NCBI GenBank assembly: GCA_041645005.1
Contig: JBAZQW010000001.1
Location: forward strand, 26,728-90,727
Length of the DNA: 64,000 nt
From: Desulfotomaculaceae bacterium
GTDB lineage: Bacteria; Bacillota; Desulfotomaculia; Desulfotomaculales; Pelotomaculaceae
Reading direction: 5' to 3'
Below are positions 36,002-58,869 of this stretch, piece by piece (within the stretch, counting starts at the first letter, position 1; every line of letters begins with the position of its first letter). A program made the translations under genes and the position numbers. The notes beneath the pieces are model-generated. The model was not told the origin of the DNA. It worked only from the letters and a program-made list of their open reading frames with translations, and did not search any database.

Positions 36002-36014
36002 TTTGACGCCCGAT

Positions 36015-39170: not shown

Positions 39171-40534
39171 TGGTTTTTCCTTTCCGACCAATTTTTTACC
39201 AACTGTTCGGCCAACCGCAACCCTGCCTCATCCCGGACCTCGAGCGGAGCATAGGGGTCATTGACTTCAACAATACCGACCTTTTCTCCCAGGAGCCGCC
39301 CTTCTCTTAAAAACAGCGGATGGGTCGCGCAGGCCAGACCTTTGATGCTGATATAGACGGGCTCCTTGAATTTTCTCGGAACAAAACCGGCATCAACCTG
39401 CTTCAAACCATCAGCTTCCTTGACCCAACAGGAACCAAATTCCGTTCTGGCCGCGACCACGCTGTCCAACCCCTCTTTAACCAACCGCATGATCAACTGG
39501 TCAAGAAACCCTTTGGGACGGAAAGGGAAAGTGACCTCTAAGGTGACAATAATATCCGCCATTATCCCCTTGTTCTCCATGGCCATGACCGCGTGTTGAA
39601 AAACGCTTTCGAGGCCCACATGCTCCGCGGAGAGGGAGCTGTCCCTCATAAAGGGGACGCTGGCGCCTAATTTCTTCGCCAGGTCGGCGTGTTCTTCTGA
39701 ATCGGTGTACACGATTGTCTGTTTGACAAATTGGGACTCTTTAGCGCTGTTAACCGTGTATTCCAGCAATGGCCGGCCTCCCAGTGAAAAACTTTCACCT
39801 TTGACCGGGACCAAGGCAACAATATTAAGGTCTTTGAGTTGCAGGTGATTGAAGCGGCGGCCATCCTCGCCATTTAGATTCTCGATGATCTTGACCACGT
39901 TGGTACAACGTTCTTTGTTCTGGTTCTGGTGGATCCCATGCCAATGATAGACACTCGCTTCCGGCTCATAGATGATCTTATAGCCGGCTTTGAGGATATC
40001 CCTCGCCCAAAGCCGATCTTCAATATTGGAAATCTTCTCATCGAACGGTATTTTTTCCCAGATATCCCGGCGGATCATGCTGTTAGCGTTGTGGAAAAAA
40101 CTGTCTTTGAGCTGAACCTTCTTGTCCAGACCGAAAACCGTTATCAGGTCGCGCTTATCGGTGTCTGGGGTAAAAGACATCGGCTCCTGCCGCCCGTAAA
40201 CTCCGGCCACTGTATCGTCGCTAAAGTTGCGGAGGAGGTTCCCCAGCCAGCGGCTGTCGACCGGGATGCAATGGGCGGAGAGGCAGACGATATAGTTGCC
40301 GCTCGAATTTTTTATCCCGATATTGATCGCCTTGCCCGGCAGGAAGTCGTCGATCGAGACGATTTTGACCGGGAAGGCCTGGGCTTTTTTAACGGTCTGA
40401 TCACTGCTCTTATTGTCGACCAGGATCACCTCGAAGTCCTGATAATCCTGCTTGAAGACCGCCTGCAGGCAGGCGCCGATCCATTTTTCCTCGTTATAGG
40501 AACGGATAATTATCGAAATATTTTTGTTGTTCAT
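39167..40534 (-). CDS. Fusion protein: N-terminal GT2 (paralogue of the GT2 domain at 15188..17071) plus C-terminal NeuA-like cytidylyltransferase domain
   Basis: The N-half reads ISIIIRSYNEEKWIGACLQAVFKQDYQDFEVILVDNKSSDQT...YGRQ. The C-half reads NIVALVPVKGES...GRPLLEYTVNSAKES...VYTDSEEHADLAKKLGASVPFMRDSSLS. Start moved to ATG 40534 (ATGA overlap). Confidence 0.7.
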   Translation of the reverse strand: MNNKNISIIIRSYNEEKWIGACLQAVFKQDYQDFEVILVDNKSSDQTVKKAQAFPVKIVSIDDFLPGKAINIGIKNSSGNYIVCLSAHCIPVDSRWLGNLLRNFSDDTVAGVYGRQEPMSFTPDTDKRDLITVFGLDKKVQLKDSFFHNANSMIRRDIWEKIPFDEKISNIEDRLWARDILKAGYKIIYEPEASVYHWHGIHQNQNKERCTNVVKIIENLNGEDGRRFNHLQLKDLNIVALVPVKGESFSLGGRPLLEYTVNSAKESQFVKQTIVYTDSEEHADLAKKLGASVPFMRDSSLSAEHVGLESVFQHAVMAMENKGIMADIIVTLEVTFPFRPKGFLDQLIMRLVKEGLDSVVAARTEFGSCWVKEADGLKQVDAGFVPRKFKEPVYISIKGLACATHPLFLREGRLLGEKVGIVEVNDPYAPLEVRDEAGLRLAEQLVKNWSERKNQ

Positions 40535-41535
40535 AACAGCCCCTTTTCCTTTAATGATTTTGACAAAACTTCGGAAAAAAGGCAACAACCCAACTCGGTA
40601 AAATGCATTTTATCCAAAAAATACTTTTCGTTGAACGGCAATGCTCCATTTAGATCGACAAAGAACGAATGAGGGTGCTTTGCCACAACCAACTTCATTA
40701 TCACATGCAGTTTCCTCATGTATGCATAATATGGCCCACCCTGGATAATTTCCGGAACGAAAACTACTTTTGCCCCCAATATATTGCCAACGTTACAGAT
40801 GCCTTCATAACGCATCTCAATAGCCGCTTCATAATCGCGGTTGCAGCGAGCCAAACCTTTTTCTGGGAAGGTCACCTTGTTGCCGTAAACTGAAGTTAGT
40901 CCGCCATTCGCCTGCCAGCAGCGCCTTGAGTCGAATACTCCCCGCTTGAAGACCGCGCTTGAGAACTGACCCATCAAATTGGCATAATCAGGAAAAGCCC
41001 ACTCTTCCGAAGGTTCCCCATTATAAAGCGGCGTCAGGTCATTCTTCGACTGATAGACAATTATAAGATTCGGCTTAAGCAGAGGCGCCCAGCTGATCAG
41101 CCTGGTCAAACTTTGGAGCGTATTCCAGCCACCGACACCCGCATTGGCAACAACACAATCATTAGATATTGCCAGCCGGCTTGGCCATGGGCTGTTTAAT
41201 TCATACAGGCCTGTGCAATAAGTTGTGCTGCCACCAAAGCAATATATTTTCTGTTTTCCGGCGGCCACCGCAAAAGATTTGATGACCGAGTCAGCCTCAT
41301 CAGTTTTCCTGAACCCTTCGACCGTATGCAGTTTCATTCCCGACCTGTTCTCATAGCCAGGGTTCAAGGCCCAATTTGTCATCGGATGGGGAGCGTAAAT
41401 ATAATGTTTGCCGATACCAGATTGGTCATGGCCGGAATAAACGATCAATTTCTTGAGGTTAGGCGCCCGCAAGAGCCTGATCTCTCTTTTCACGACCGAA
41501 ACAAACCAACTAAGCCAACGGATAAATGTCTTCAT
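40531..41535 (-). CDS. SGNH/GDSL-like hydrolase or O-acyltransferase-like protein
   Basis: Blocks occur in the correct order: IYCFGGSTT (block I Ser), NAGVGGWNT (II), YQSKNDL (III) and DKMHFTELG (V, DxxH). GGAGGA lies 7 nt upstream of ATG 41535. Confidence 0.5.
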   Translation of the reverse strand: MKTFIRWLSWFVSVVKREIRLLRAPNLKKLIVYSGHDQSGIGKHYIYAPHPMTNWALNPGYENRSGMKLHTVEGFRKTDEADSVIKSFAVAAGKQKIYCFGGSTTYCTGLYELNSPWPSRLAISNDCVVANAGVGGWNTLQSLTRLISWAPLLKPNLIIVYQSKNDLTPLYNGEPSEEWAFPDYANLMGQFSSAVFKRGVFDSRRCWQANGGLTSVYGNKVTFPEKGLARCNRDYEAAIEMRYEGICNVGNILGAKVVFVPEIIQGGPYYAYMRKLHVIMKLVVAKHPHSFFVDLNGALPFNEKYFLDKMHFTELGCCLFSEVLSKSLKEKGLL

Positions 41536-43589: not shown

Positions 43590-44647
43590 CTAAAACCCCT
43601 TAATAACGTACGAAGAATTCTTAACCAAACAGGATTACTCCTTCGCCAATCCCTCTCGACTGCTATTAAATAATCCTGGGTTTCTTCTCCCCGGTTGACC
43701 TTGCCGGGAGTTTCGCTCGCGAGCTCATCGTTTCTTTTGAATATAGCACGAATAAATTCATCAGCTTTAACCGCGGTCAGGCCATTCCGCTTGGTGAATT
43801 CCTTTAATGTCCTCAATTCAAAACAAAAATTATGTTCGAGCTGTAAAAACGACAAGAAATCGTTGCCGCTGACCAGCCATTCGTCGGATATTTTATCAGC
43901 CCGCGTTCGGCTCCAATGTTTTACCCCCGGGACTTCAATATAAATGCTGCCGGTCGGAGTGATCAGTTCTTTCGCCTGCTGCAAAGCCAGATCAACATCC
44001 GGCATATGCTCAAGACAGTGGGAAAAGATCAGCAGATCGGCCTTCAACGACAGCTTCTGGAGCGATTCGATCCCACCGGATAAAAGCTCCATTCCGGCCG
44101 CTCTCCCCGCTCCCAGCCTGTCTTCGTCAAAGTCGCAACCGTAAACCTGACAGCCGGCCTGATGGAAAGGATAAAGATTACAGCCATCGTTGCAGCCAAC
44201 CTCCATGACGACACCTGTCTTTTTAAAACCTTCGCCCAGCGCGTCTTTTATCCATTGAAATCTTTTCCAGGCATACGCCCCCGGAGCGGTACGATCGGCA
44301 AACATCCGGGCAGCGCTCCGCCCGTCATTCTTCAGTTGATTGCAATATTTAGCGTAATAGCGATCTGCCCCCTTATCACTGAAATAGGCGGAGGAGAAAA
44401 CTAGCCCGCAGTTGTCGCAGATCACGGTTTCCAGGGGCAAACCGAGCCGGTCTTTTAAAGCGACAACCGTTACTTTTGTTGCTTGACATAAGGGACAGGC
44501 GGCAAAAGCCAGCCGTTCGATCTCCCCATTTTTTAGCGCTTCCCCGACCACCCCAGCCGCCGCTCTGGTGATCCGACTTTCCCGGTAGAGCGGACGTCCG
44601 TTAGCCTTAAATCGGTTCGACAGCAAGGCGAGTTTCTTTTCAAGCAT
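43586..44647 (-). CDS. SAM-dependent methyltransferase with N-terminal Cys4 zinc-ribbon
   Basis: Motifs CPLCQ...CDNCGLVF, then VMEVGCNDGCNL and LIFSHCLEHMPD. I prefer ATG 44647 (ATGCTTGA overlap). Confidence 0.75.
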   Translation of the reverse strand: MLEKKLALLSNRFKANGRPLYRESRITRAAAGVVGEALKNGEIERLAFAACPLCQATKVTVVALKDRLGLPLETVICDNCGLVFSSAYFSDKGADRYYAKYCNQLKNDGRSAARMFADRTAPGAYAWKRFQWIKDALGEGFKKTGVVMEVGCNDGCNLYPFHQAGCQVYGCDFDEDRLGAGRAAGMELLSGGIESLQKLSLKADLLIFSHCLEHMPDVDLALQQAKELITPTGSIYIEVPGVKHWSRTRADKISDEWLVSGNDFLSFLQLEHNFCFELRTLKEFTKRNGLTAVKADEFIRAIFKRNDELASETPGKVNRGEETQDYLIAVERDWRRSNPVWLRILRTLLRGFR

Positions 44648-45365
44648 CCCCAGCAACCTCGTCATAGCGCAGATCATAATTACCAAGTTTTTCTTTACCG
44701 ACCAGAAGCGCCTCCACCATTTTCAGATCGTCTTCGGTCTTAATAATCAGAGCTGACTCTTTACTAACCGGATAATAACCCATTTTGCCGCAAAACAGGG
44801 CATAGCCTTTTTCTTTATATGTCTTTTGAAAAGTCTTATTGCGCCACATCATCACGGAATAAACAAAACGCTGGACCGGTATTAAATCCTGAGTCCTGGC
44901 AAATAGACCGTCTTCCTGGAAATTGAGCGGCTGTCCGTCATACAGACAATGCACCTGCTCCTCCCGCACCGTGATCAGACCATCCAGTTTCTTTTCTTGA
45001 AAATAACGGACGACAGCACGGACCTCTTCCCCGCTCTGCAGCGGCGAAGTTGAATTAACCCAGACAGTGATGTCGGCCGGATGATGTTCCATAAAATCAA
45101 AAACAACATCGTCGGACTTGGCCTCGGAGCTCCCCAACTTTTCCGGGCGGTGGTAAAATTCTACCCCGTACCTTTCAGCAATCCCGGCAAAAACCTCGTT
45201 TTCCGAATTCAATATTATTTTATCAAATACACCGGATTTTTTGGCCGCCGCGATCGGGTAATAGATCATCGGTTGCCCGTTGATCAGGGCTAAGTTCTTT
45301 TTGGCCAGACGGGTACTCCCCATTCTGGCCGGGATCATCGCGACTATTTTTTCCTTGCCGGTCAT
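44640..45365 (-). CDS. NeuA-like acylneuraminate cytidylyltransferase-family protein
   Basis: Motif KIVAMIPARMGSTRLAKKNLALINGQPMIYY. 241 aa. Confidence 0.75.
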   Translation of the reverse strand: MTGKEKIVAMIPARMGSTRLAKKNLALINGQPMIYYPIAAAKKSGVFDKIILNSENEVFAGIAERYGVEFYHRPEKLGSSEAKSDDVVFDFMEHHPADITVWVNSTSPLQSGEEVRAVVRYFQEKKLDGLITVREEQVHCLYDGQPLNFQEDGLFARTQDLIPVQRFVYSVMMWRNKTFQKTYKEKGYALFCGKMGYYPVSKESALIIKTEDDLKMVEALLVGKEKLGNYDLRYDEVAGDA

Positions 45366-46543
45366 AAATTTACCCAGGCTCCATTACGTTTCAGGCTCTG
45401 ATTGGCCGCTTCGACCACCGCGGTCGAAACCAGCGCTTCCGAGAAAGTCGGCCTTTTCCCTTCCAATTTCTCCGGCGAAGTTTCTCCATCAATAATTCCG
45501 CGAACATCGCTTACGAACTGGAGAATACTCTCAACCCCATAACCGCGAAAGGTCGTTTCGCCCTCCCCATTCGCGTAAAAAGCCGAGAAATCAGGATTCG
45601 GTTCTTCGATCCCGGCCGCGTCGGTCACCAGACAGATCCCCCGTTTTTTCTGGTCCGCTTCATAGCGCCCTTTTGTCCCGATCACTTTGATCTTCTGATC
45701 GGACATCGCCGATGTCCCCTCGGGATCGATCCAATTGACCAGGATCGCGCTGGTGAACCGGCGACCGTTCGAACTTTTCCATTCGATCAAACATTGGATC
45801 GAATCGTAAGTATCGACCCCTTTGGCCCGAAGAAAATTCTTCTGGCCGACGGCCATGACCCGTTGCGGCAGAGCCCGGGTGGCGAAATAGATAATATCGA
45901 CGTAATGGACGCCGAGATATTGGAAAATATTACTCTTGGTCGCCCAGCTTTTAAAGACCCCCAGCGGGATGTTTTTTCGCTGGCTGTATTCGACAATAAA
46001 GTAAAGCGGATCGCCGATCTTCCCTGAGCCGATCGCTTCTTTCAGCTTTAAATTCGAACGGTCATAGCGCTTGTGGAACTCGACCGCGCCATAAACATTT
46101 TTGGCGCGCTGAAGCTTGACGAGTTCCTTGGCCTCACGCAGCGTCGGAGCGAGCGGTTTAACGACCAGGCAGGGGATACTCCTCCTCAGCAAGTTAGCCG
46201 TGATCGCAAAATGGAGATGATCCGGCACCGAAACAATGGCACAATCGGGCCACCAACCGTCCTTGAGCGGCTGCTGGTAAGCCTGTGGGTCCCGGCTCTT
46301 CCCTTTTGGAAAACATTCCACATCCAGCCCAAAACCAAAGATCTTCCGTAAGGCGGCGAGTTTTGCTCTTAGCGCTTTGACACTGCCCGCACTTGTCGCC
46401 GCGACCTTCACCTCAAGCTCCCAGCCATCCTTTTGAGCCTGAAAAAGAGCGGGCAAGATCGTTCCGTAGCCGGTTGTCCCCCGACCGCAGACGTACATGC
46501 CGGCCCCAACGATCAGCACCTTTAAACTTTTATTTTTTTCCAT
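45362..46543 (-). CDS. Gfo/Idh/MocA-family NAD(P)-dependent oxidoreductase
   Basis: Motifs LKVLIVGAGMYV and VSVPDHLHFAITANLLRRSIPCLVVKPLA. AGGAG SD upstream. Confidence 0.7.
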   Translation of the reverse strand: MEKNKSLKVLIVGAGMYVCGRGTTGYGTILPALFQAQKDGWELEVKVAATSAGSVKALRAKLAALRKIFGFGLDVECFPKGKSRDPQAYQQPLKDGWWPDCAIVSVPDHLHFAITANLLRRSIPCLVVKPLAPTLREAKELVKLQRAKNVYGAVEFHKRYDRSNLKLKEAIGSGKIGDPLYFIVEYSQRKNIPLGVFKSWATKSNIFQYLGVHYVDIIYFATRALPQRVMAVGQKNFLRAKGVDTYDSIQCLIEWKSSNGRRFTSAILVNWIDPEGTSAMSDQKIKVIGTKGRYEADQKKRGICLVTDAAGIEEPNPDFSAFYANGEGETTFRGYGVESILQFVSDVRGIIDGETSPEKLEGKRPTFSEALVSTAVVEAANQSLKRNGAWVNL

Positions 46544-46553
46544 TTTACCGCTC

Positions 46554-48470
46554 CTATTTTTGTTTTAATAACCAGGCGGGAAAGTCGACCGTCTCGTTCG
46601 CGCCAAAACGATGCCGCTGGAATTCCTTTGCCGGCACTTTAAAATCCAGGCCGGCTTCGTCCAGCCGGTCAAAGTATTGCTGGAGCGCTATCCGGTCCGG
46701 GACAAAGAGGACCGCTTTTCCGATCTCGCCGCTGAAAGGCTCACCGGGAATGTGGGCGTATCTCCCTTCCCCGCCATAAAGGAGGACTGGGACTTTATTG
46801 CTTAAGGCCTCTTCGATCGTAGTCGAGGAAAAACTAACGATCAGGTCGGCCTCCGCCAGGACGTCAAGAAAGGATCTTTCTGTTTCAATTATGACATTAT
46901 CCGCTGGGGGGAGATAGCGCTTCAACGCTTCGAGCGTCAGCTCGTAATCATTTTGCCGGAACTTGACGATCAGCTTGATCCTTGGCCGCCCCGCAACGGC
47001 CGCGGCCAACTCCTGAAGAGCTTTGACGTATTCATCGGCAGTTTCGTAAATATAGCGGCGGTTATGCCGCATCTTAAAGGTCCCGGCGTGAACGACCGTC
47101 AGTTGCGACCGTTCAGCTGGGTTCGCTTTTTCAATCCGCCTTCCCCAGAGGGTCGGCTGGATATTTACCAGGCGGTCGGGATCAGCGAGCATTTTAAGAG
47201 CCAGCGTCCCGGCATGAGGCGACTGAACTGCCGAATATCGGTAATGTCCGACCAAAATGTTTTTCGCCAGCTGCTCATGCTCTCTAGCCGCGTATTTTTC
47301 AGTGTGCAAAACATGTGAGCCATGGCTGATCAGCACAGAGGGGATATTAAATTTTTTCGTTATCTCTCCCAAAGCGCCATAAACTTCCAAGTTCATTTGC
47401 GAGATCACGTATGTCGGTCTGATCGCCTCCAGCGCTTTCTCCAAGCCGAAAGCCAGATAATGCACTCCCAGCAGATACGGCGCGAGGTCGGATCTGATCT
47501 TTTCCGTTAAGATCCCGGATATATTCACTCCCATATAAGTCAAGACGTCATTATTCTTCCCGAAGAAACCCATAATATTCTCAGAATATTCTTTTGGCGC
47601 TTCTTTCTCATACGAACCGATGTTCGCCCGGGCAAACGTCTTAATGGGAAAAATAAAATCGAGCGGATAACCGGTCGCGCGATCTTTGATCTTTCGTTTA
47701 ACCAAGACGGAAACCAATATCCCCAAGGCCTGGACAACTTCCATCAAGCCCTCGCGCCCGTTATAGAATCCGCCGACCGCCAATCCGTTTTCCTCCTTGC
47801 GCAGATCGTCACAGACACGGTCAAGGTTATATTTAAAACTTGGCACCAACAGGGTCCTTCTCCTTTTTAGGAGCGCGGCCGCCAATTTCAGCACTTGCGA
47901 ACTAACCCAATTGCAGGCCAAATTGAATCGACTTTGGCCAAACTTTTCAGCCATAGGTTGGACTGTCCAGGGCGACAGTTTTAGCGGCACAAAGCCGATC
48001 GCTCTCATAGTACACATTTTTTCCGCTAGCCGTCCCAGATAAAGCTGGTTGTCTTCGACCCAGGGGGAAAGAGTCACTTCCGATTTATGTTTGAAAGCCG
48101 CAATTTGTGAATAGCTATTTTGGGCTAAACACTTATCTAATAATTCGATATTCCAAAGGAGGTGCCGCCAGATCAGAACCAGATAGTAAAAACTGGCATT
48201 AACAAACCAATCTTCTGGTCGCCTCCCCTTGCTTTTGTCTAGCTCTCCCCTTAGGGACGACTCGATCTCAGCGCACTTTTCCATCACCAGTTGAAAGGAA
48301 GCCGTGTCAATAATATCCGATGTATCAAGACTGATAATATTATTCTGCGCCAAAAATGACCTGATATTCGGGTTAAGCGCCAAGACCGACCAATCGTTCA
48401 GTTCAAGCTCCCGGAGCGCCTGTTTTGCTTCGTTCATATCCTCGATGATCAATAATTGGTTTTTATTCAC
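46554..48470 (-). CDS. Uncharacterised protein of about 638 aa (U3) with a GT-B-like C-terminal half (capsule-synthesis / TagF-like flavour)
   Basis: Motifs SVLISHGSHV, KLIVKFRQND and ADLIVSFSSTTIEEALSNKVPVLLYGG. Likely GTG start at 48470 (GTGA overlap). Confidence 0.35.
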   Translation of the reverse strand: MNKNQLLIIEDMNEAKQALRELELNDWSVLALNPNIRSFLAQNNIISLDTSDIIDTASFQLVMEKCAEIESSLRGELDKSKGRRPEDWFVNASFYYLVLIWRHLLWNIELLDKCLAQNSYSQIAAFKHKSEVTLSPWVEDNQLYLGRLAEKMCTMRAIGFVPLKLSPWTVQPMAEKFGQSRFNLACNWVSSQVLKLAAALLKRRRTLLVPSFKYNLDRVCDDLRKEENGLAVGGFYNGREGLMEVVQALGILVSVLVKRKIKDRATGYPLDFIFPIKTFARANIGSYEKEAPKEYSENIMGFFGKNNDVLTYMGVNISGILTEKIRSDLAPYLLGVHYLAFGLEKALEAIRPTYVISQMNLEVYGALGEITKKFNIPSVLISHGSHVLHTEKYAAREHEQLAKNILVGHYRYSAVQSPHAGTLALKMLADPDRLVNIQPTLWGRRIEKANPAERSQLTVVHAGTFKMRHNRRYIYETADEYVKALQELAAAVAGRPRIKLIVKFRQNDYELTLEALKRYLPPADNVIIETERSFLDVLAEADLIVSFSSTTIEEALSNKVPVLLYGGEGRYAHIPGEPFSGEIGKAVLFVPDRIALQQYFDRLDEAGLDFKVPAKEFQRHRFGANETVDFPAWLLKQK

Positions 48471-49432
48471 GGTTTGATAAACTCCAATTTTTTGGCAATA
48501 TCTTCGACTAGCCCATGAACTGGAAAGGCCAAACACTTTTCATAGGCTGGGTTCAAAGGATCGCCGGACCAATTAAAATGATAAAGACTGGTCTCGACCC
48601 CATGTTCCGAAAGCAGAACGGCCTGCTTCCCTTTGATGACCGGTTCTGGAGCCCCTCTTAACAAAGGAGCAATGCCAGGCCCGGCACCAGCTTCCACCGC
48701 CCTTTTCATCCAAACCGGCCACTCACTGCTCAGCGGAGATTTTAATAATGCCGCTAGATTGCGCTGACGAGCGGCAAGTTCGATCTTGACCGCGGCCGTA
48801 ACGTCATTCTCGGACAACCATTTTGTGAGATGAGGATCAAGCGCCTTGACCTGGCTTTTAAGGATCGTGTTAATTTGACCGTAAGGATCTTCGCCCACTA
48901 AACCTTGTTTTACCAAGGCAGCCATGAGCTTGACCGAGCCCTCTTCGGGCTCAAAAGCCAGTGGTCGATCGTTCACGGTCGCCAGCCCTCCCCCAGTAAC
49001 ACCAAGCAATTTCGACAAGCTTAGTACCCGGATAATAGTTTTAAAGTTTTTGGCCGCATTGAGCTTGTCCGCAAAATAATGAGCCGAGTCAACCATGTCT
49101 TTGATGAAGACCGCGCCGGTAAAACGGGCTTCCAATTCCCCCAATACCCCCGCCGACAACGGCCACCCCCATTGTTCATACACCAAAACACCAGCACATT
49201 TGATCTCCCCGGCGATCACCTCGTTAATGGGAATAGGCATGGCATACGCCCCCACCGCGTTGATCACGCATTGGGAGCTCCACTCCGGGATGGCAACGCG
49301 ATCGCCGCGGTCAAGCCCCGCTTCAGTGAGCGCTTGGCTAAGCGCCTGCCGGCCGCTGGGAAAAATATTCCTAAGCGGGAAATTTCCCAGTCCCGGATTT
49401 TGTACGGCCATATCTCTCCACAATTTGATCAT
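48467..49432 (-). CDS. Divergent DegT-like / fold-type-I PLP-enzyme-like protein
   Basis: Motifs FPSGRQALSQAL...GDRVAIPEWSSQCVINAV...VLVYEQWGWP...KDMVDSAHYF...VLSLSKLLGVTGGGL. The block order is the same as in 11624..12670. Confidence 0.4.
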   Translation of the reverse strand: MIKLWRDMAVQNPGLGNFPLRNIFPSGRQALSQALTEAGLDRGDRVAIPEWSSQCVINAVGAYAMPIPINEVIAGEIKCAGVLVYEQWGWPLSAGVLGELEARFTGAVFIKDMVDSAHYFADKLNAAKNFKTIIRVLSLSKLLGVTGGGLATVNDRPLAFEPEEGSVKLMAALVKQGLVGEDPYGQINTILKSQVKALDPHLTKWLSENDVTAAVKIELAARQRNLAALLKSPLSSEWPVWMKRAVEAGAGPGIAPLLRGAPEPVIKGKQAVLLSEHGVETSLYHFNWSGDPLNPAYEKCLAFPVHGLVEDIAKKLEFIKP

Positions 49433-51141
49433 AATATGGCCTTTGCCTGCTCAAAAAATTCTTGGCGGCTAACCGGCCAGGCGACTTCCGCCTGGAACTT
49501 TCTGATCGGCAGACGACCTTTGTTTAGGAATTCGCGGTTATCATCAACGATCATCTTGAACGACCTTAAGCCGGCCGACGCTTCATAAAAAATAATCCCC
49601 GCCGCGGCCAATTCACGGTCGATCTCCTTCCCGCGCACGGTAGCCTGCAGGCATTCCCATTCATTATGGAAAACCAAAGTTGGCACTCCCGCCTGGACAG
49701 ATTCAGCAAAACCAGTACTCACCGTATCCCACAAAACCAGATCAACCATGGCAAACAGCTCATGCGGTTTTTGACTGACAATCCCAACACTCCCGGCTTT
49801 CAGTTCATCGGCAAACACTTCCTTGATCGGGTCATTAGCGTAGGTTCCGGGAAAAGGCTTGTACAAAACCCTTAGTCCCGGATACAGTCGCTTTAACTCT
49901 TTAAGATATTGGAGCACCTGCAAGCGGTGAACCCGGTTTTTTTCAGGGGAAATTTCTTCGAGATCGGTCATAAAATCCATCAGCGGTCCGGAGGGATAAA
50001 AAAGAGTAAGCTCCTGCCCGTTGATCACCGGCTTATTCCATTTCGGGATTGCGGTTAGGTATGTGCTGCCGAAACTAATCGTTTTTAACCTCGGAAGAAG
50101 GACCTCGCCTTTAAGCCAGTCACTATCATTCTTCCCCCAGGCGAAATAATAATCAAGAAAAGCCAACTCATTGGCCGCTTGTTTGCGGGAACTGATCATG
50201 TTTGATGCTCCGTGCTGATGGCCGATCAACAAGGCTTTCTTTCGCTTGGCCAGCAAGGCAAAGATCTTAAAATTGTCATTACGATAATAACCGGTTGCGG
50301 AGTGGACCTGTTTTATATCCCAGCCGATTAGGAGCCGCGAATAATAAGCTAACGTCTCAGGCAGGCCTTCAACCACCGCCACCGGCAGAGCCCGATCAAC
50401 AAAATCGGCAAAGAGAATGGCTAATGAATCACGGGTTGAATTATTAAGATTCGGCAAGATATTATTGATCCATGCGATAAATACTTTCTCAAAGACGTCA
50501 CGCATATTGAACCGAAGGGTCAAATTGATCGTCACGGAAGGTAGCTGATAATTAAAAATCATCATCTCCCGATCTTCAAGCAGATATTTCATCTTTTCCG
50601 TCTTATCAGCGAGCTTGCGCGGTTTGCTTCTTCTGATCCTGGCAAGCTCAGATCGATCAAGAAAACGCCTGATGATCTTTTTGGGGTTAAAAAGCTCGCC
50701 AACACTCCACCGGTTGAACAATTTCGCCTTGGCGCTCGAGCCTGTCCGGGCGATTGCTTCCCCGCGAAGTGCCTTGGCCAGCCGGCCAAGCAACTGCCGG
50801 TTGATATCCTGATCGTAGTAATATCTTTCAAGAGAAATAAAGCTGTTCAAGTAATAGTATCGATCAGCGGAAATATTCACAGTTTCACCACTCTCGTTGT
50901 TCTTTTCGCTCACTACCGTCCGCAGAAGTCTCTCCACGAAGAAATTGCAGGCCACATGGACCGGAAAACGGTAGAGCAAACGAAATTCTTCGCCGGCCAG
51001 GTCACCGGACGTCACGATTCTGGCCGCATAGAGTTCGGTCAGCAATTCGTCAACCAAGCGGCCAGTTTGGCTGGCTATTTCGCGCTGGTCATATTCACCG
51101 GTCCAGTCCGACCTATTGTAATCTAGCAAAGGCCTCTGCAT
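49429..51141 (-). CDS. Uncharacterised protein of about 570 aa (U4), paralogue of 52553..54235; putative GT-B-type transferase
   Basis: Shared blocks with U5: RFPVHVACNFFVERLLR, KIFALLAKRKKALLIGHQHG, YPSGPLMDFMTDLEEISPEKNRVHRLQVL, YKPFPGTYANDPIK and VDLVLWDTVSTGFAESVQAGVPTLVFH. Start moved to ATG 51141 by alignment to the paralogue. Confidence 0.4.
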   Translation of the reverse strand: MQRPLLDYNRSDWTGEYDQREIASQTGRLVDELLTELYAARIVTSGDLAGEEFRLLYRFPVHVACNFFVERLLRTVVSEKNNESGETVNISADRYYYLNSFISLERYYYDQDINRQLLGRLAKALRGEAIARTGSSAKAKLFNRWSVGELFNPKKIIRRFLDRSELARIRRSKPRKLADKTEKMKYLLEDREMMIFNYQLPSVTINLTLRFNMRDVFEKVFIAWINNILPNLNNSTRDSLAILFADFVDRALPVAVVEGLPETLAYYSRLLIGWDIKQVHSATGYYRNDNFKIFALLAKRKKALLIGHQHGASNMISSRKQAANELAFLDYYFAWGKNDSDWLKGEVLLPRLKTISFGSTYLTAIPKWNKPVINGQELTLFYPSGPLMDFMTDLEEISPEKNRVHRLQVLQYLKELKRLYPGLRVLYKPFPGTYANDPIKEVFADELKAGSVGIVSQKPHELFAMVDLVLWDTVSTGFAESVQAGVPTLVFHNEWECLQATVRGKEIDRELAAAGIIFYEASAGLRSFKMIVDDNREFLNKGRLPIRKFQAEVAWPVSRQEFFEQAKAIL

Positions 51142-51832
51142 ACCCGTATTTATTCTCCTTGCCTCTTTGCCGGCAATTATCAACCACCGCTCTGAGCGAG
51201 AGCGGGCTGGGAAACTCTTTGAGTTCTTCCTTATAAGTTCTGATGGCCGCTTTTTTACTTTGGATATAAGAAGAGATATTAACAACATTGTCTGGCTTGA
51301 ATTTATTAATTTCAATCGGCGGCAAACAATCCATGTTCCCAGGGATCTCAAAACAAAACACCGCTCTTTTTTTTACCGGCTCCTTACTTGGTCTGAAAGC
51401 GGTCAGGACAGCCTCGCAACAAACCCGATGGTCACGGTTAATATCTCCCCAGTGATGGGTATAAATAATGTCGGGATCTGTCCCGGCCACGATCCGCTCG
51501 ATCTCCTTAACGATATCCAACAAAGATATGCTGTCAAGCCGCTGATCGGCCAGTCCAAGCGCGTAGCAATTTTTCCTTTTGATCCCCAAGATAGCGGCCG
51601 ACCGAAAAAGTTCTCTTTTTCTCTTTAAAATGAGCTTAGAGTATTTCTTTATCTCACTCTCTCTGGACACGCCGTGGCGGTAAACTCTCGAAGTCACCCC
51701 ATCAGCCAGAGCGATGAGCCTAACCTCCGCACCCGCCTGAACGTGTTTGAGGATCGTTCCCCCGCAACCGAAGGCCTCGTCGTCGGGATGAGCAACAACG
51801 ACCAGAACGTTCTTAGCGCTAAAAAACATCAT
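51113..51832 (-). CDS. PIG-L/LmbE-family N-deacetylase, copy 2
   Basis: Motif VLVVVAHPDDEAFGCGGTI. Start moved to ATG 51832. Confidence 0.8.
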   Translation of the reverse strand: MMFFSAKNVLVVVAHPDDEAFGCGGTILKHVQAGAEVRLIALADGVTSRVYRHGVSRESEIKKYSKLILKRKRELFRSAAILGIKRKNCYALGLADQRLDSISLLDIVKEIERIVAGTDPDIIYTHHWGDINRDHRVCCEAVLTAFRPSKEPVKKRAVFCFEIPGNMDCLPPIEINKFKPDNVVNISSYIQSKKAAIRTYKEELKEFPSPLSLRAVVDNCRQRGKENKYGYAEAFARLQ

Positions 51833-51845
51833 CCACCCCCCGAAT

Positions 51846-52556
51846 TCATGATTTATCAACCTCACCATCCGCAACCATCATTTTAATCTTTACCCTTGCC
51901 TTAACCATATTGCCAACCATCTCGGCCCCGGAAAATTCATATCTCGCCCCTCCCGATTCCAAAAAGGCCGACGGGTATCCGTCAGCATCAAGCATCCGGA
52001 TATGGTCATAAATACTCGCCAATCCCTTTATTTTCGAAATATCACTTTCCGAAGGCTGGCGTCGCTTAAAATATTTTACGGGCCCTCTTTGCGGTTGTGG
52101 CACCGGCCGTTTTTTGATTATATGAGGGATCATTTCATTGAAAATAATTTCTGCCGCCCTAGTGAATATTTCTTGGGCGGTTCCTTTTAACCGCAAATCA
52201 GCTTTTAAATAAACGGGCCCTGCATCATAATCCCCAGTTACTCTGAAAGCAGATATTTTAGTTTTATATATTCCCCTCGAAATTAAGTTCTGCAATGGGC
52301 TGCCACCTCGGCCAAAGGGCAGATCGGTCATATGAAAGGCAATGCATTCCCATTTTTTATATATCGCTTCCGGTATTTTCCACGACCAATGCGGAAAAAA
52401 AATCAATTCTGGATCAACATGATTGATCTTCTGATAGGTTAATTCATCATAGCGACTGATAATCCGCATTGGATCCGCACTCTTTTTGGCAAAAGCGGCG
52501 GCCAGCTTGATGTTCCAGGGCTTAACCGTCGCCACAATATAGTTCCTCCTTTTCAT
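51846..52556 (-). CDS. Formyltransferase-like protein, copy 2
   Basis: Motifs IFFPHWSWKIP, CIAFHMTDLPFGRGGSPLQ and YDAGPVY. The Asn of N-x-H is replaced by Ala. Confidence 0.6.
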   Translation of the reverse strand: MKRRNYIVATVKPWNIKLAAAFAKKSADPMRIISRYDELTYQKINHVDPELIFFPHWSWKIPEAIYKKWECIAFHMTDLPFGRGGSPLQNLISRGIYKTKISAFRVTGDYDAGPVYLKADLRLKGTAQEIFTRAAEIIFNEMIPHIIKKRPVPQPQRGPVKYFKRRQPSESDISKIKGLASIYDHIRMLDADGYPSAFLESGGARYEFSGAEMVGNMVKARVKIKMMVADGEVDKS

Positions 52557-54235
52557 CCCTGCATCCTAATGTTAAGAGCTTTCTCGACCTGGCCAACAAA
52601 CTCAGTGCGCTTGACTGGATAAGCCAGCGCCTCTTGGAATACTTTGACTGCGTTACTCTCAGAACGAGAAATAGCGGACCGGTCATTTATAATTCGTTTA
52701 AATGCATTCAAACCAGATTCGATATCGTAAAATACGATCCCTGCTTTTTCTAGTTCACCGTCGACCATCTTACCAAGCGGAAGAGCCTGTTGCTTTTCCC
52801 CGTTAGAATGGAAAACCATCGTCGGCACGCCAGCCGCCATTGATTCGGCAAAGCCGGTGCTGATCGTGTCCCAGAGCACCAGATCAACCTGATTGAAATA
52901 ATGAATCGGCTTATCATAAACAATCTTAACCAGGCCCCGCCCTAATTCTTCAGCAAGGACGTCCTTAATTGGATCTTTGGCAAAGGTACCAGGAAATGGC
53001 TTATAAAGAATCTGCGCGGACGGAAATAGCTTTAGTACTGCCCTTAACATCATCAACACCTTTAAACGATGCTGTCGATTCTTTTCCGGTGACGCTCCCT
53101 CAAGATCATCCATAAAATCCAACAAAGGGCCGGAAGGATACAAAATGGTAAAAACCGGTGGACTCACGGCCTTCCTTTCCCATTTTTTTATTTCGCCAAG
53201 ATAAGGACTGCCAAAATTAAATATTTTTAAATTGGCAAGAGGCGCGCCCTTGGCCAGCCAATCGCTATTCTTCACCCCCCACGAAAAAAAATAATCGAGA
53301 AAGACCAACTCATTGCTAAAACCACGATGGTCAACAATAAAATTTGTTATCCCATGCTCATAGCCGACCAAAATTGCTTTTTCTCTTTTTGCCAAAACGG
53401 CAAATATCTTGAGATTGTCATTGTATTGAAACCCGGTAAAAGAATGTAGTTGCCTGACCGGCCAGTCCTTGAGGAGCACCCGATAATAAGAAAATCTCGG
53501 CCGCAAACCCTCGACAAGACTAGTCGGCAAAATATGCTCGGCAAATTCCGCATATATCAGGGCCAGGAATTGTTTTTCTTGATCATGAAGTCCGGATAAT
53601 ATTCCATCAATTTCAATTAAAAATAATTCGGTCAATACGGCGCGAATCTGCCGCCGAGTAATCCGATCGACCTCTTTTACCCGGGGGTTAAAATCAAAGG
53701 CAAAAATATGCGAAGCGGGCATGAACATTCTCATCCAATTAGAATAATCACAAATATAAACTGGCTTCATTAATTTCATAAAAATATTGGACCGGAGGCC
53801 GAGTAAATATTTTTTCACGTTCCTAAGTTTAAGCAATATGAAACTCGATTGATCGATTTTGACCGTTATTGGCATTATGACGTCTTTGGCCCGCTCTTCC
53901 GCGCCAAATACTGAAGCGATCTGATTAAGCAACGTATAATTGACGGAAAAATCATAATAATAACTCTGAACTGCTTCGACCGTATTGTTATAATATTTGT
54001 TCTCCTTGGTAGCCGGCGGATAAATCTCTCGGTTCAAATATTGGCGCAACAGCCGCTCGACAAAAATATTGGTGGCTACATGCACCGGAAAACGGATGAC
54101 CAGCGCTAATTCATCGCGGGTTAAGCCGGAAAATACTTCGATTTTACTCTGGTGCAGCCGGTCGATCACTTGATCGATAAATTTATTCGTTTTTTCAACG
54201 ATCGCAGGCTGATCATATTTATCCGTCCAATCCAC
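52553..54235 (-). CDS. Uncharacterised 560-aa protein (U5), paralogue of 49429..51141
   Basis: Motifs RFPVHVATNIFVERLLR, KIFAVLAKREKAILVGYEHG, YKPFPGTFAKDPIK and VDLVLWDTISTGFAESMAAGVPTMVFH. GTG start at 54235. Confidence 0.4.
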   Translation of the reverse strand: MDWTDKYDQPAIVEKTNKFIDQVIDRLHQSKIEVFSGLTRDELALVIRFPVHVATNIFVERLLRQYLNREIYPPATKENKYYNNTVEAVQSYYYDFSVNYTLLNQIASVFGAEERAKDVIMPITVKIDQSSFILLKLRNVKKYLLGLRSNIFMKLMKPVYICDYSNWMRMFMPASHIFAFDFNPRVKEVDRITRRQIRAVLTELFLIEIDGILSGLHDQEKQFLALIYAEFAEHILPTSLVEGLRPRFSYYRVLLKDWPVRQLHSFTGFQYNDNLKIFAVLAKREKAILVGYEHGITNFIVDHRGFSNELVFLDYFFSWGVKNSDWLAKGAPLANLKIFNFGSPYLGEIKKWERKAVSPPVFTILYPSGPLLDFMDDLEGASPEKNRQHRLKVLMMLRAVLKLFPSAQILYKPFPGTFAKDPIKDVLAEELGRGLVKIVYDKPIHYFNQVDLVLWDTISTGFAESMAAGVPTMVFHSNGEKQQALPLGKMVDGELEKAGIVFYDIESGLNAFKRIINDRSAISRSESNAVKVFQEALAYPVKRTEFVGQVEKALNIRMQG

Positions 54236-55302
54236 TATCTGCCTCCGATCTGATAATCAAGGGTGAGCTGGTTTAGCTTGGTCGACAATTCTTTCTGCAT
54301 ATATTCTTTGTCAAAATATTTCACTCCCCGATAATATGTGACCGTTTCACCGCCAAACCCACGTTTAAAATTAGAAATGCTAACTTCTTTATCGCTCGGC
54401 AAATCGTTGAACTGCGGGCCAAATTGCTGAACGCCGATCTCATAGGTCTTGAAGCCCAGGTTCTTGAGATACTTGATCGTTTCCCACTGAATGACATGGG
54501 AAATAGGCACGTCATCTTTAAAATCAGGATCATCACTGGCCGAGGCGTAATAGGCAGCGCTTTTATAGATGCAAACATAAGAAAAGCCGACAAATCGTCC
54601 CTCGAAGCTCAGGCCACAAAGCAACCCTTCGCCATCTTTGATCCAGCGATACATCATTTCAAAAGTCTCAACCGGACGGGTCACCCGGCCCGCCGCTTTA
54701 TGATGCAATAACCGATATTGGTCAAAAATGGTTTTGTCCGCGTTATGGCGATCAATGAAATCCACTTTATAGTGTTTCGATCCGCGGTTAATATCGTACT
54801 TATGCCCTTTCCTGACCGCCGCCCAGATATCATCGATGGGCCGGTCAAGCTGAATCAATTCCGTATTAAGAGAATCATCAAGATAGCCGAGTTTGACCAG
54901 CCAGTTGAATTTCATCGTGGTCTTCGCCAGCGGACTGGAACGAAAATATATTTTTTTAATCGACCCCCCCCCGGCCAGCTCATCGATTTTTTCAAAAATG
55001 TATTTAATTACTTTTTCCCGCCGGCTACCGGACAGGCCATTGGCTAGCGCGGGAAGCGCCCCATATCGACCGCCACCTCTGGCGGCAAAAAGATCTTTTT
55101 CACAGAGCAGCGGACAGATGGCGATTAGGCCGGTGTCATCTTTAACAAGGAAAGAGAGGTTGTTCGTCCCAAAATTTTCCTGGCCGTAGACGACACAGTA
55201 ATCAAGCCATTTTATCGTATGCCAAAACCAAGCATCGTCTGATTGGCAACAAAAGTTGTCCCAGTCAGTCCGGTTGTTTTCAGTCAACGGCACTACTTGC
55301 AT
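54235..55302 (-). CDS. FemAB-family / GNAT-fold transferase
   Basis: 355 aa. It has the FemAB-like two-lobe layout (DIWAAVRKGHKYDINRG; FEGRFVGFSYVCIYKSAAYYASAS) and contains a G9 tract. Confidence 0.55.
   Translation of the reverse strand: MQVVPLTENNRTDWDNFCCQSDDAWFWHTIKWLDYCVVYGQENFGTNNLSFLVKDDTGLIAICPLLCEKDLFAARGGGRYGALPALANGLSGSRREKVIKYIFEKIDELAGGGSIKKIYFRSSPLAKTTMKFNWLVKLGYLDDSLNTELIQLDRPIDDIWAAVRKGHKYDINRGSKHYKVDFIDRHNADKTIFDQYRLLHHKAAGRVTRPVETFEMMYRWIKDGEGLLCGLSFEGRFVGFSYVCIYKSAAYYASASDDPDFKDDVPISHVIQWETIKYLKNLGFKTYEIGVQQFGPQFNDLPSDKEVSISNFKRGFGGETVTYYRGVKYFDKEYMQKELSTKLNQLTLDYQIGGR
54964..54972 (-). repeat. G9 homopolymer on the coding strand inside the FemAB-like gene (codons AGGGS)
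   Basis: Plus strand reads cga ccccccccc gg, with C at 54964..54972. This is the longest G/C run I found in the window. Confidence 0.9.
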
Positions 55303-57819: not shown

Positions 57820-58869
57820 TCAGATCATGTCCTTCGTAATCCATTGATCCGCCTTAATATCTCTCCGGGCAACCCGACCAATAACCTTGCGCTCGTCTCT
57901 CGATTTAATCCCCAAACCCGGTCGTTTGACTGTCAACATTTCCGACGTTATCATCGTTCCGCTTTTTATATCATGAACAGCGTGCAAACTGCGACGAGCC
58001 AGGCGAAAATTTTCTCTTTCAGAATCAAGAACAACCTTTTTCCCGTCCCCAAGCAGTAACTCCGTATTCCTGAGATCGGCCACAAATGACCTTAGTTCAT
58101 CTGGCTCCAGAGAAAATGGGTGATCGGGACCGGTCTGTTTCTTATCCAAGGTGATATGCTTTTCGATCACACAAGCCCCCAGGGCGACCGCGGCAATCGA
58201 AGAGATCGGGGTTAAGGTGTGATCAGAAAAGCCAATCGGCAATTTGAACGTTTCTTTTAACGTATTGATTGCGCGTAAATTAATGTCCCGGTAAACGGCC
58301 GGATACTGGCTAACACAATGAAGCAGAATAATATCCCGGCTACCCGACCTCCTTAAAACAGTCAACGCTTCCCTAATCAATTTTAAGTCGCTATTGCCGG
58401 TCGAGATAATGACTGGTTTGCCAGTCTGACCGATCGCTTTGAGCAATCGGAAATCATCCGTCTCATAGCTGGCAATCTTGAAGAAAGGAACATTCAAGCG
58501 ATCCAGTTCTTTGACCGCCGCCAGGTCAAAAGGCGATGAGGCAAACAAGACGGCCCGTTCGCGACATCTCCGCCTAAGAACCTTATGCCATTCTCTCGGC
58601 ATTTCCAGTCTTTTTATCAGCTCGTATGGCCCTTCGCCCGCTCTTGAGCGGCCCTCCATTTCGGAAAGCCGCGGAGTGAATTTTGAATAAAGCGTGTCAG
58701 CACTGTAAGTCTGAAATTTGACCGCATCGACCCCAGCCTCAGCCGCAAGATCGATCATCCGCAACGCCGTCTTCAAATCTCGATTATGGTTAGAGCCTAT
58801 TTCGGCAATGATCAAAACCGGTTCGCCCTGGCCGACCAATCGGCCCCCGATCTTAACTTTATTTTTCAT
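57820..58869 (-). CDS. Nonulosonic acid synthase, PseI/SpsE-like NeuB-family member with SAF domain
   Basis: Motifs PVLIIAEIGSNHN, DAVKFQTY, GFSDHT and KRPGLGI. Confidence 0.85.
   Translation of the reverse strand: MKNKVKIGGRLVGQGEPVLIIAEIGSNHNRDLKTALRMIDLAAEAGVDAVKFQTYSADTLYSKFTPRLSEMEGRSRAGEGPYELIKRLEMPREWHKVLRRRCRERAVLFASSPFDLAAVKELDRLNVPFFKIASYETDDFRLLKAIGQTGKPVIISTGNSDLKLIREALTVLRRSGSRDIILLHCVSQYPAVYRDINLRAINTLKETFKLPIGFSDHTLTPISSIAAVALGACVIEKHITLDKKQTGPDHPFSLEPDELRSFVADLRNTELLLGDGKKVVLDSERENFRLARRSLHAVHDIKSGTMITSEMLTVKRPGLGIKSRDERKVIGRVARRDIKADQWITKDMI

Follow-up and report, generated by a model that had tools for sequence, protein, structure and literature searches.

Genes U4 and U5

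The DNA studied here (the window) is a stretch of 64,000 nucleotides of contig JBAZQW010000001.1 (assembly GCA_041645005.1, Desulfotomaculaceae bacterium; contig positions 26,728 to 90,727), and all positions given below are those of the window. It carries two genes, U4 and U5, whose products had been proposed in an initial annotation to be a paralogous pair of transferases using donors linked to cytidine mono- or diphosphate (CMP, CDP). The two proteins add divergent new members to a family that is known but uncharacterised, and do not represent a system of a new kind; a role as nonulosonate transferases is a well-founded hypothesis on this already catalogued family. The two genes are:

52553-54235, minus strand: U5, GTG start, 560 amino acids, LIC12162 family (PF27859), GT-B fold preceded by a helical N-terminal domain
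49429-51141, minus strand: U4, ATG start, 570 amino acids, paralogue of U5 (PF27859) with all invariant residues of the family kept

The GTG of U5 is preceded at a distance of 7 nucleotides by a Shine-Dalgarno sequence (GGAGG), and the protein sequence is identical to MFA4884227.1. The reading frame of U4 is open further upstream, to a TTG at 51351; alignments with homologues begin at the ATG, and the NCBI lengths of the protein are 566 or 570 amino acids. In BLASTP comparison U5 and U4 aligned end to end with 40% identity and 59% positives over 559 amino acids with 6 gaps (E = 1e-144), a similarity far beyond chance, and U4 scored 733 bits against the profile of the clade. The five conserved blocks on which the initial annotation had based the paralogy were all found in both proteins, and correspond to columns that are invariant, or nearly so, when 25 family members are aligned. 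Both proteins have an isoelectric point of about 9. The possibility that they are membrane proteins was rejected (no 19-residue window above a Kyte-Doolittle value of 1.7, no transmembrane segment); their sequences fit soluble or peripheral cytoplasmic enzymes.

The surrounding genes form a long, tightly packed run on the minus strand. From the FemAB gene (54235-55302) to the PseF-like cytidylyltransferase gene (44640-45365) each junction is either an overlap of 1-29 nucleotides or a gap of at most 10 nucleotides, and these genes therefore constitute one translationally coupled operon. Profile matches also bore out the statement that U4 and U5 flank a deacetylase/formyltransferase pair: a PIG-L and a formyltransferase-like gene lie between them.

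The same locus is present in two metagenome-assembled genomes (MAGs) at NCBI with conflicting taxonomy, one assigned to Desulfotomaculaceae (WC601_*) and one to Candidatus Margulisiibacteriota (WC903_*). The proteins appear in the two records as MFA4884227.1/MFA4884224.1 and MFA5893609.1/MFA5893611.1; the counterpart of U5 in WC903 has an annotated length of 405 amino acids only. Since the nearest homologues are in Saganbacteria, sequence comparison favours the Margulisiibacteriota label for the locus.

Membership in the LIC12162 family

A PF27859.1 (LIC12162) match is precomputed in the protein database for U5 (P0001), U4 (P0011) and most members of their clade, whereas a Pfam profile library predating PF27859 gave no match for the pair. 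With the NCBIfam profile TIGR04331 ("LIC12162 family transferase") U5 scored 28.1 and U4 44.4 bits, over partial stretches and below the curated cut-off of 225. A bridging member, P0168, scored 382 bits on TIGR04331 and was recovered in full length by the profile of the U4/U5 clade. When searched against 1.84 billion cluster representatives (50% identity clusters), the clade profile retrieved 697 proteins at E<=1e-3, among them 74 at E<=1e-30, and its more distant full-length matches were TIGR04331-type proteins. Judged by these profile comparisons, the clade of U4 and U5 is a small and divergent branch of a family for which databases already have an entry and the name putative transferase. 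They share with the LIC12162 family the length (about 560-600 amino acids), full-length colinear alignment, the invariant residues and a setting of NeuB and cytidylyltransferase genes, but are only 16-19% identical to TIGR04331-type members. The family ranges over Leptospira, Omnitrophota, Margulisbacteria/Saganbacteria, Syntrophales and Herbaspirillum; its name derives from a gene in the O-antigen region of Leptospira interrogans.

These results settle several points of the initial annotation. Its statement on similar putative transferases in Leptospira-type loci was accurate, and concerned the right family (PF27859 'LIC12162', TIGR04331). Its statement that the pair could not be assigned to a characterised enzyme holds in so far as no characterised homologue was found, but the proteins can be assigned to the catalogued PF27859/TIGR04331. 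Likewise, the description of the pair as prime candidates for novel nonulosonate transferases has to be given up as regards novelty, the databases already calling the family putative transferases, whereas the role itself is kept as the best hypothesis. The search of NCBIfam that it had recommended yielded, besides the weak and partial TIGR04331 matches, no confident match to a characterised non-transferase family.

Two homologues of P0168 (P0210 and P0212, 716-752 amino acids) are LIC12162-family proteins fused to a GNAT acetyltransferase domain (PF13302/PF00583). The GNAT-fold FemAB gene that immediately precedes U5 offers a parallel to these fusions, which suggest, at the level of domain organization, that the transferase is functionally coupled to an N- or O-acylation step.

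Predicted fold of U5

A model of U5 was built with AlphaFold2 on the 25-sequence alignment and compared with the Protein Data Bank (PDB) by Foldseek. The mean predicted local distance difference test (pLDDT) value of the model was 88.1 and its predicted template modelling score (pTM) 0.88. The N-terminal domain (approximately residues 1-156) is all-helical. It is followed by a first Rossmann-like domain with strands 160-163, 262-265, 288-292, 315-318 and 337-340, which is interrupted by a helical insertion, and by a second Rossmann domain with strands 363-367, 408-412, 436-438, 452-455 and 472-475; helices spanning 505-559 form the C-terminus. The search gave 172 matches at E<=1e-3, and the best 50 of the 172 were all GT-B enzymes (probability 1.00). 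They include the GT41 enzymes SPY and OGT (best E 1.8e-7), UDP-GlcNAc (uridine diphosphate N-acetylglucosamine) 2-epimerases, the GT4-type SdgB, OtsA, LpxB and AaNGT. The model thus gives U5 a GT-B fold, the outcome on which the proposal of a transferase had been made to depend, and the conserved C-terminal blocks, earlier placed in the nucleotide-binding half of a GT-B enzyme, do lie within the second Rossmann domain of this confident model.

Conserved residues

R194, E242 (in an x-E-G motif), H294-G295, G320 and D456 are invariant across the clade and the TIGR04331-type members, and D314, E464 and P471 are nearly so. In the 25-member alignment the invariant or near-invariant columns are K276, H294-G295, Y366-P-S-G-P370, Y411-K-P-F-P415, D421-P422 and D456...S-T-G-F-x-E464...P471. 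Three of the motifs deserve separate mention:

52985-53005, minus strand: Y411-K-P-F-P-G-T motif of U5, directly after strand 408-412 of the C-terminal domain (U4 equivalent 49843-49863)
52820-52873, minus strand: W455-D456-x-x-S-T-G-F-x-E464...G-V-P471-T block of U5, in the next strand-helix unit (U4 equivalent 49678-49731)
53351-53362, minus strand: Y-E-H294-G295 motif of U5, at the end of strand 288-292 of the N-terminal Rossmann domain (U4 equivalent 50209-50220)

According to a structural paper of 2026 on transferases of 3-deoxy-D-manno-oct-2-ulosonic acid (Kdo), sialyltransferases (GT29/38/42/52/80) and retaining Kdo transferases (GT99/107) have a conserved (K/R)XHP motif in common, whose Lys or Arg bonds with O2/N3 of cytosine and whose Pro is stacked against the base (PMC12887879). 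The K-P-F-P of U4 and U5 is a suggestive, partial match to this motif. Y411-K-P-F is invariant in 25/25 clade sequences and P415 is present in 24 of them; Phe in place of the His, which had been noticed from the two sequences at the outset, is thus a constant feature of the clade. In the wider family this position is occupied by Phe, in many members by Tyr, and in one by His.

In the second block D456, G461, F462, E464 and P471 are invariant within the clade, and the block is predicted to be the phosphate- and ribose-binding helix of a GT-B C-terminal domain. Its conservation makes H294 a candidate for a role in catalysis or on the acceptor side. When U4 and U5 were inspected for the D/E-D/E-G motif, only (V/I)-E242-G243 was found, in which E242 is invariant and the preceding residue hydrophobic.

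Gene neighbourhood

A survey of CMP-sugar genes was made around family members in 15 independent loci (denoted by L numbers where necessary); it rests on loci gathered in several ways because a scan of species-representative genomes yielded 4 and a metagenome scan 8. In 13 of the 15, NeuB, KdsA-like (DAHP_synth_1) and/or CTP_transf_3 genes were found within 10 kb. Of the remaining two, one was uninformative, with the gene at a contig end, and one, in Saganbacteria, was negative. Lack of such an association, which had been named at the beginning as an argument against the proposed role, is clearly not what was observed. The neighbours of U4 and U5 that enter into this comparison are the following:

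54235-55302, minus strand: FemAB_IMCC1989-type (GNAT-fold) acyl/aminoacyl transferase, TIGR04421 (3e-28) and Acetyltransf_6, upstream of U5 with a 1-nucleotide overlap
51846-52556, minus strand: formyltransferase-like tailoring enzyme, Formyl_trans_C_2 (7e-20) and Formyl_trans_N (5e-4, below cut-off)
51113-51874, minus strand: PIG-L/LmbE-family de-N-acetylase, PIG-L (4e-28), directly upstream of U4
48467-49432, minus strand: PLP_IMCC1989-type putative aminotransferase, TIGR04422 (2e-6), a conserved cassette member
46554-48536, minus strand: X660, conserved GT-B-fold partner, probably 638 amino acids (NCBI start), beginning near 48470
45362-46543, minus strand: GFO/IDH/MocA oxidoreductase (Pfam matches), orthologues 44-67% identical in L003, L004, L005, L008 and L011
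44640-45365, minus strand: PseF-like cytidylyltransferase, CTP_transf_3 (2.5e-23), TIGR03584 PseF at 80 bits (below cut-off)
57820-58869, minus strand: NeuB-family nonulosonate synthase of the upstream module, NeuB (7e-88), TIGR03569 at 364 bits, PseI at 335 bits
61848-62618, minus strand: SpsF-like cytidylyltransferase of the upstream module, CTP_transf_3 (1.8e-32), orthologues in L006 and L021

A core cassette, (FemAB)-LIC12162-(PLP_IMCC1989)-X660-GFO oxidoreductase-PseF-like cytidylyltransferase, was recognized in the window and in L003, L004, L005, L008 and L011, and in varied form in L017, L018, L020 and L021. Orthologues of the cytidylyltransferase at 44640-45365, which is presumed to make the CMP-sugar donor for the cassette, are 45-67% identical in the same five loci. 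The FemAB-LIC12162 adjacency recurs in L003, L005, L006 and L018, and in L003, L019 and L020 an orthologue of the aminotransferase gene (PF27889) is found downstream of the LIC12162 homologue. A PIG-L gene immediately precedes the LIC12162 homologue in L001/L007 and L017; in L006 and L021 it lies close by and is adjoined by an orthologue of the formyltransferase-like gene. Two loci with true TIGR04331 members show the same setting: in L022 the gene directly follows NeuB in a cassette almost identical to the upstream module of the window, and in L023 it directly follows a KdsA-like synthase, beside an ABC transporter and 7-10 kb from a legionaminic acid (Leg)-type pathway.

The window as a whole is a glycan locus of exceptional size and content. 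It encodes two NeuB synthases (57820-58869 and 34958-36025), one NeuC, and PseB/PseC-like enzymes. CTP_transf_3 domains occur six times: SpsF-like at 61848, PseF-like at 44640 and 27788, KdsB-like at 25174 and 14412, and in a GT2-cytidylyltransferase fusion at 39167. Also present are at least six conventional GT2/GT4 enzymes, ATP-grasp and several FemAB-type enzymes, a carbamoyltransferase, a B12-radical-SAM protein, a PglK/MsbA-like ABC transporter, a YfhO-like protein and a Wzy_C protein. Among the proteins of the window no match to the Maf, GT52/80/38, Capsule_synth, WaaA or TagF families was found. Over the whole window there is about one large orphan GT-B-like protein per cytidylyltransferase.

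Some further features of the tailoring genes were observed. The formyltransferase-like protein of 51846-52556 keeps the His and the Asp of the Asn-His-Asp triad, the Asn being replaced by Ala. In an alignment of five such proteins (51846-52556, 33557-34309, L006:7520-8191, L021:6743-7387 and one from L019) four have Ala, Gly or Val in place of this Asn, which is located two positions ahead of the His, and only that of L019 keeps it. A second PIG-L (34314-34979) and a second formyltransferase gene (33557-34309), both on the minus strand, are situated between NeuC (32403-33584) and the second NeuB (34958-36025), and because of this position the gene order suggests de-N-acetylation and N-formylation of a nonulosonate precursor in a Leg-type pathway. 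The GT2 fused to a CTP_transf_3 domain (39167-40588, minus strand) adjoins a gene for an Ldh_2-family dehydrogenase (38124-39191); the fusion was also found in L003, L004 and L018, and is accompanied by an Ldh_2 gene in L004 and L018. A 730-residue fusion of a FemAB-type Acetyltransf_6 domain with a polysaccharide deacetylase (8465-10657, minus strand) adjoins another FemAB-family gene (10638-11675).

The partner protein X660

An orthologue of X660 lies just downstream of the LIC12162 gene in 10 loci. X660 was likewise modelled by AlphaFold2 with a GT-B fold (pLDDT 90); in the PDB it is matched best by UDP-GlcNAc 2-epimerases, among which is the hydrolysing NeuC. The protein contains the motifs S-H-G-S-H, K-x-R-P and S-F-S-S-T-T-I-E-E-A-L...V-P-V-L-L-Y-G-G, and some of its orthologues carry weak PF27859 matches. 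In profile-profile comparison (hhalign) with the U4/U5 clade it was colinear over 305 columns with a probability of only 3.7%; the alignment paired H-G with S-H-G-S-H, K-P-F-P with K-x-R-P, and S-T-G-F-A-E...V-P-T with S-S-T-T-I-E-E...V-P-V (U4/U5 first in each case). X660 is probably a third, very distant relative of the U4/U5 superfamily, and it is a rival candidate for the transferase role or for a hydrolase role.

Origin of the pair

In a bootstrapped neighbour-joining tree U4 was the sister of P0003, a protein from a different metagenome (88%), and not of U5; the copies within two other two-copy genomes (L005/L006 and L018) were not sisters either. A recent tandem or local duplication of U4 and U5, which was considered, is rejected on the 88% bootstrap pairing of U4 with P0003. 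MAG CAZMPJ01 has this set of genes in two separate modules with about 13 kb between them, AKR-cytidylyltransferase-aminotransferase-formyltransferase-PIG-L-FemAB-LIC12162-TIM-SDR-phosphoesterase-ATP-grasp-NeuB and FemAB-LIC12162-PLP-X660-GFO-...-cytidylyltransferase. Because the same genes are kept apart there, the window seems to have arisen by the fusion of two modules, both of which brought a LIC12162 enzyme of their own. As every invariant residue is retained in both sequences, both copies are probably active. The initial annotation had regarded the pair as a duplication around a tailoring pair, serving two linkages or two acceptor states. The tree and CAZMPJ01 do not support local duplication, but two specificities are still reasonable, arising through old paralogy and module shuffling.

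Proposed function and alternatives

According to our best hypothesis, on which our confidence is evenly divided, U4 and U5 would be glycosyltransferases of the cytoplasm with a GT-B fold, which transfer nonulosonates or ulosonates from CMP to a glycan under construction. Their place would be in the assembly of a surface glycan with a high content of nonulosonic and ulosonic acids. The same operon, through its NeuB synthases and CTP_transf_3 cytidylyltransferases, would supply the CMP-sugar donor, and the acceptor would be the growing glycan, probably lipid-linked. As two old LIC12162 paralogues, each enzyme would consist of a helical N-terminal domain of about 155 residues followed by the two Rossmann domains. 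The nucleotide would be held in the C-terminal Rossmann domain, with K412 and P415 holding the cytosine like the K/R and P of (K/R)XHP, the start of the S459-T460-G461 helix binding the phosphate and E464 the ribose. On the face of the N-terminal Rossmann domain the invariant H294, with E242 and D314, may activate the acceptor, which the helical domain would recognize. The copies would derive from two fused modules, FemAB-U5 and formyltransferase-PIG-L-U4-PLP-X660-GFO-cytidylyltransferase, and because they belong to different modules U4 and U5 probably differ in donor or acceptor, for example in the N-acylation of the sugars. The hypothesis is supported by the family membership and the GT-B fold, by the gene association in 13 of the 15 loci, with L022 and L023 among the instances, by a Herbaspirillum genome comparison in which a LIC12162 transferase gene adjoins neuABC (PMC6679464), by the lack of any recognised CMP-sugar transferase in a window with two NeuB genes, NeuC and six CTP_transf_3 domains, by the Y411-K-P-F-P415 motif next to a strand of the C-terminal domain, and by the coupled operon and the absence of transmembrane segments.

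Several observations weigh against this hypothesis. The best 50 of the 172 structural matches of U5 are all UDP- or GDP- (guanosine diphosphate-) dependent enzymes or UDP-GlcNAc 2-epimerases, with no CMP/CDP-dependent GT-B enzyme (GT52, GT80, GT107, TagF) among them; the TM-scores in this set do not exceed 0.37 (query-normalised) or 0.51 (target-normalised), and with such modest values U5 has no close solved relative. Searches of PDB chains with profiles of the clade alignment (A1) and of the wider-family alignment (A2) gave nothing meaningful. No match to the sialyltransferase, KpsS/KpsC, WaaA, TagF or Maf profiles of Pfam and NCBIfam was obtained with U4 or U5 at E<=0.1. K-P-F-P keeps the Lys and Pro of (K/R)XHP and departs from the full motif in its Phe, which stands in place of a His important in sialyltransferases, and D456-x7-E464...A-G-V-P-T, although with Asp in the first position, equally resembles the EX7E of GT4 enzymes using nucleoside diphosphate (NDP)-sugars. 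Because the first of these motifs is only a partial match and the second is equally GT4-like, the sequence motifs leave the donor unsettled. The Saganbacteria locus has neither NeuB nor CTP_transf_3 within 10 kb. Finally, neither the literature nor the source-given names yielded a characterised LIC12162-family member and thus experimental data: across the TIGR04331 family the names are only 'LIC12162 family protein', 'putative transferase' and 'hypothetical protein', and a literature search for LIC12162, TIGR04331 and 'surface carbohydrate biosynthesis protein' returned one genome paper, the Herbaspirillum comparison, and no functional study. With structural matches of UDP/GDP type, no profile match to sialyltransferases, KpsS/C or TagF, and a Phe for the HP-motif His, the use of a CMP/CDP-linked donor, as first proposed from the C-terminal blocks, was not substantiated by motif or fold.

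The main rival, which we consider unlikely, is that U4 and U5 transfer N-acetylhexosamine (HexNAc) from UDP or GDP, the product being de-N-acetylated by PIG-L and re-acylated by the formyltransferase-like, FemAB or ATP-grasp enzymes. GlcNAc glycosides, once glycosyl transfer has taken place, are the typical substrates of PIG-L/LmbE enzymes, and the same logic operates in the synthesis of bacillithiol (BshA/BshB), mycothiol (MshA/MshB) and teicoplanin (GtfA/Orf2*). The position of PIG-L directly upstream of the LIC12162 gene in the window and in other loci (see above) agrees with this, as do the UDP/GDP type of the best 50 of the 172 U5 matches, SdgB included, the likeness of D-x7-E...G-x-P to the GT4 EX7E together with the missing His of HP, and the Saganbacteria locus lacking NeuB and CTP_transf_3. 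BshA (3mbo) itself was among the structural matches of X660 and not among the U5 matches listed. On the other hand, the link of the family to cytidylyltransferase and NeuB/KdsA genes (13/15 loci) is much tighter than to any NDP-hexose gene, and the window has its conventional GT2/GT4 enzymes for NDP-sugars and nothing else for CMP-sugars. Moreover, the second PIG-L and formyltransferase pair belongs to a NeuC-NeuB pathway without an adjoining LIC12162 gene, so these two activities can act on nonulosonate precursors instead. U4 and U5 had no Glycos_transf_1 or Glyco_transf_4 match in Pfam, which also speaks against an NDP-HexNAc transferase.

The GT-B fold also houses epimerases and hydrolases. 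It is therefore conceivable, if improbable, that U4 and U5 are nucleotide-sugar hydrolases or 2-epimerases of the NeuC/LegG/PseG kind, or other modifiers, which supply the aldose for NeuB or remodel an activated sugar. UDP-GlcNAc 2-epimerases make up a large share of the best 50 of the 172 U5 matches and nearly all of the X660 matches listed; in profile scans the right-hand module (NeuB at 57820) had no recognisable NeuC or PseG of its own; and the genes are embedded among sugar-tailoring enzymes, not among other glycosyltransferases. Yet neither protein matched Epimerase_2 (PF02350) or Glyco_tran_28 in Pfam, and both are about 200 amino acids longer than the epimerases, whose core is about 370 amino acids, with a conserved helical N-terminal domain and an insertion. 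Genuine PseG-like or NeuC genes co-occur with LIC12162 homologues in L017, L019, L021 and L023, and the homologues are therefore not replacements for PseG/NeuC. Two or three copies per locus, too, agree better with transferases, of which each linkage would need its own, than with an enzyme for one step of a pathway.

Very improbable is a TagF/TagB-like phosphotransferase or polymerase using CDP-polyol or other CDP donors to make a teichoic-acid-like or phosphodiester polymer for ABC export, for although TagF likewise combines a GT-B fold with a conserved His in its N-terminal domain, ABC transporter genes occur in the window and, adjoining the homologues, in L004, L020 and L023, and one window cytidylyltransferase has a weak IspD/TarI-like match, U4 and U5 gave no Glyphos_transf (PF04464) match, TagF is not among the best 50 of the 172 structural matches, the linked cytidylyltransferases are CTP_transf_3 enzymes of the PseF/SpsF/KdsB type, which activate ulosonic acids and not polyol phosphates, and no glycerol- or ribitol-phosphate pathway genes were identified.

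Comparison with known systems

The nearest solved structures are those of GT41 SPY/OGT and of UDP-GlcNAc 2-epimerases, with which U5 has the GT-B core in common (Foldseek E 2e-7 to 1e-5, 320-590 aligned columns). They differ from U5 in sequence (10-16% identity, no sequence-profile relationship) and in using UDP or GDP donors.

With the (K/R)XHP enzymes, that is, the sialyltransferases of GT38/52/80 and the retaining Kdo and pseudaminic acid (Pse) transferases of GT99/107/118/140, U4 and U5 share a GT-B-type fold and an occurrence in CMP-ulosonate loci. In both groups the K...P pair (K412...P415) directly follows a strand of the nucleotide domain, and is followed in turn by an S/T-rich helix start and an acidic residue; furthermore, the x-E-G of U4 and U5 (E242), in the N-terminal half, recalls the D/E-D/E-G of HP-motif sialyltransferases. 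U4 and U5 differ from these enzymes by the Phe for His, the lack of a profile match and the extra helical N-terminal domain, and the (K/R)XHP enzymes are absent among the best 50 of the 172 structures.

A wider proposal, which we advance tentatively and hold to be somewhat doubtful, is that the LIC12162 superfamily, including the X660-type partner and perhaps other orphan 'surface carbohydrate biosynthesis' proteins of about 600 amino acids such as TIGR04326, is an unrecognised family, at the level of a CAZy family, of CMP-nonulosonate/ulosonate transferases. Its members would bind cytidine through K/R-x-(F/Y/R)-P, with H294 of the N-terminal Rossmann domain replacing the catalytic His. LIC12162 and X660 pairs would act in turn, in the manner of KpsS/KpsC, to lay down heavily N-acylated nonulosonate units, with one dedicated transferase per cytidylyltransferase. 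If the LIC12162 family is the missing family of CMP-nonulosonate transferases, nonulosonate-bearing glycans could be predicted from sequence by annotators, new enzymes would become available for glyco-engineering, and the "essential" His of the HP motif would prove dispensable. The value of the present analysis is a sharpened, testable hypothesis for a catalogued family that may fill the nonulosonate-transferase gap, together with a (K/R)XHP-like motif without His.

To our knowledge, very few transferases of Pse, Leg and related nine-carbon acids are known: Maf, FlmG, the Tannerella enzymes and KpsS1. Knowledge of nonulosonate transferases is called "scarce" in the paper on the enzymes of Tannerella forsythia, Tanf_01245 and TFUB4_00887 (PMC5420450). 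These two are genetically validated transferases of Pse/Leg derivatives, predicted to be GT-B/TagB-like, and their genes lie just downstream of CMP-nonulosonate genes (PMC5420450). Unlike U4 and U5, the Tannerella enzymes (NF046086, BFO_1060 family) are about 445 amino acids long and have HP and D/E-D/E-G motifs; U4 and U5 did not match NF046086, and X660 matched it at chance level only (E 0.037, 13 bits).

In FlmG, a Pse/Leg glycosyltransferase of flagellin, acceptor binding is the task of a helical TPR domain, and the choice of a Pse or a Leg donor depends on the GT-B domain (bioRxiv 10.1101/2022.03.25.485807). No TPR match was found in U4 and U5 with Pfam, and no flagellar genes were identified in the window, in which respects they differ from FlmG. 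Compared by architecture alone, U4 and U5 resemble it in that a helical domain at the N-terminus precedes the GT-B domain, and the best structural matches of U5, SPY and OGT, are also TPR plus GT-B enzymes.

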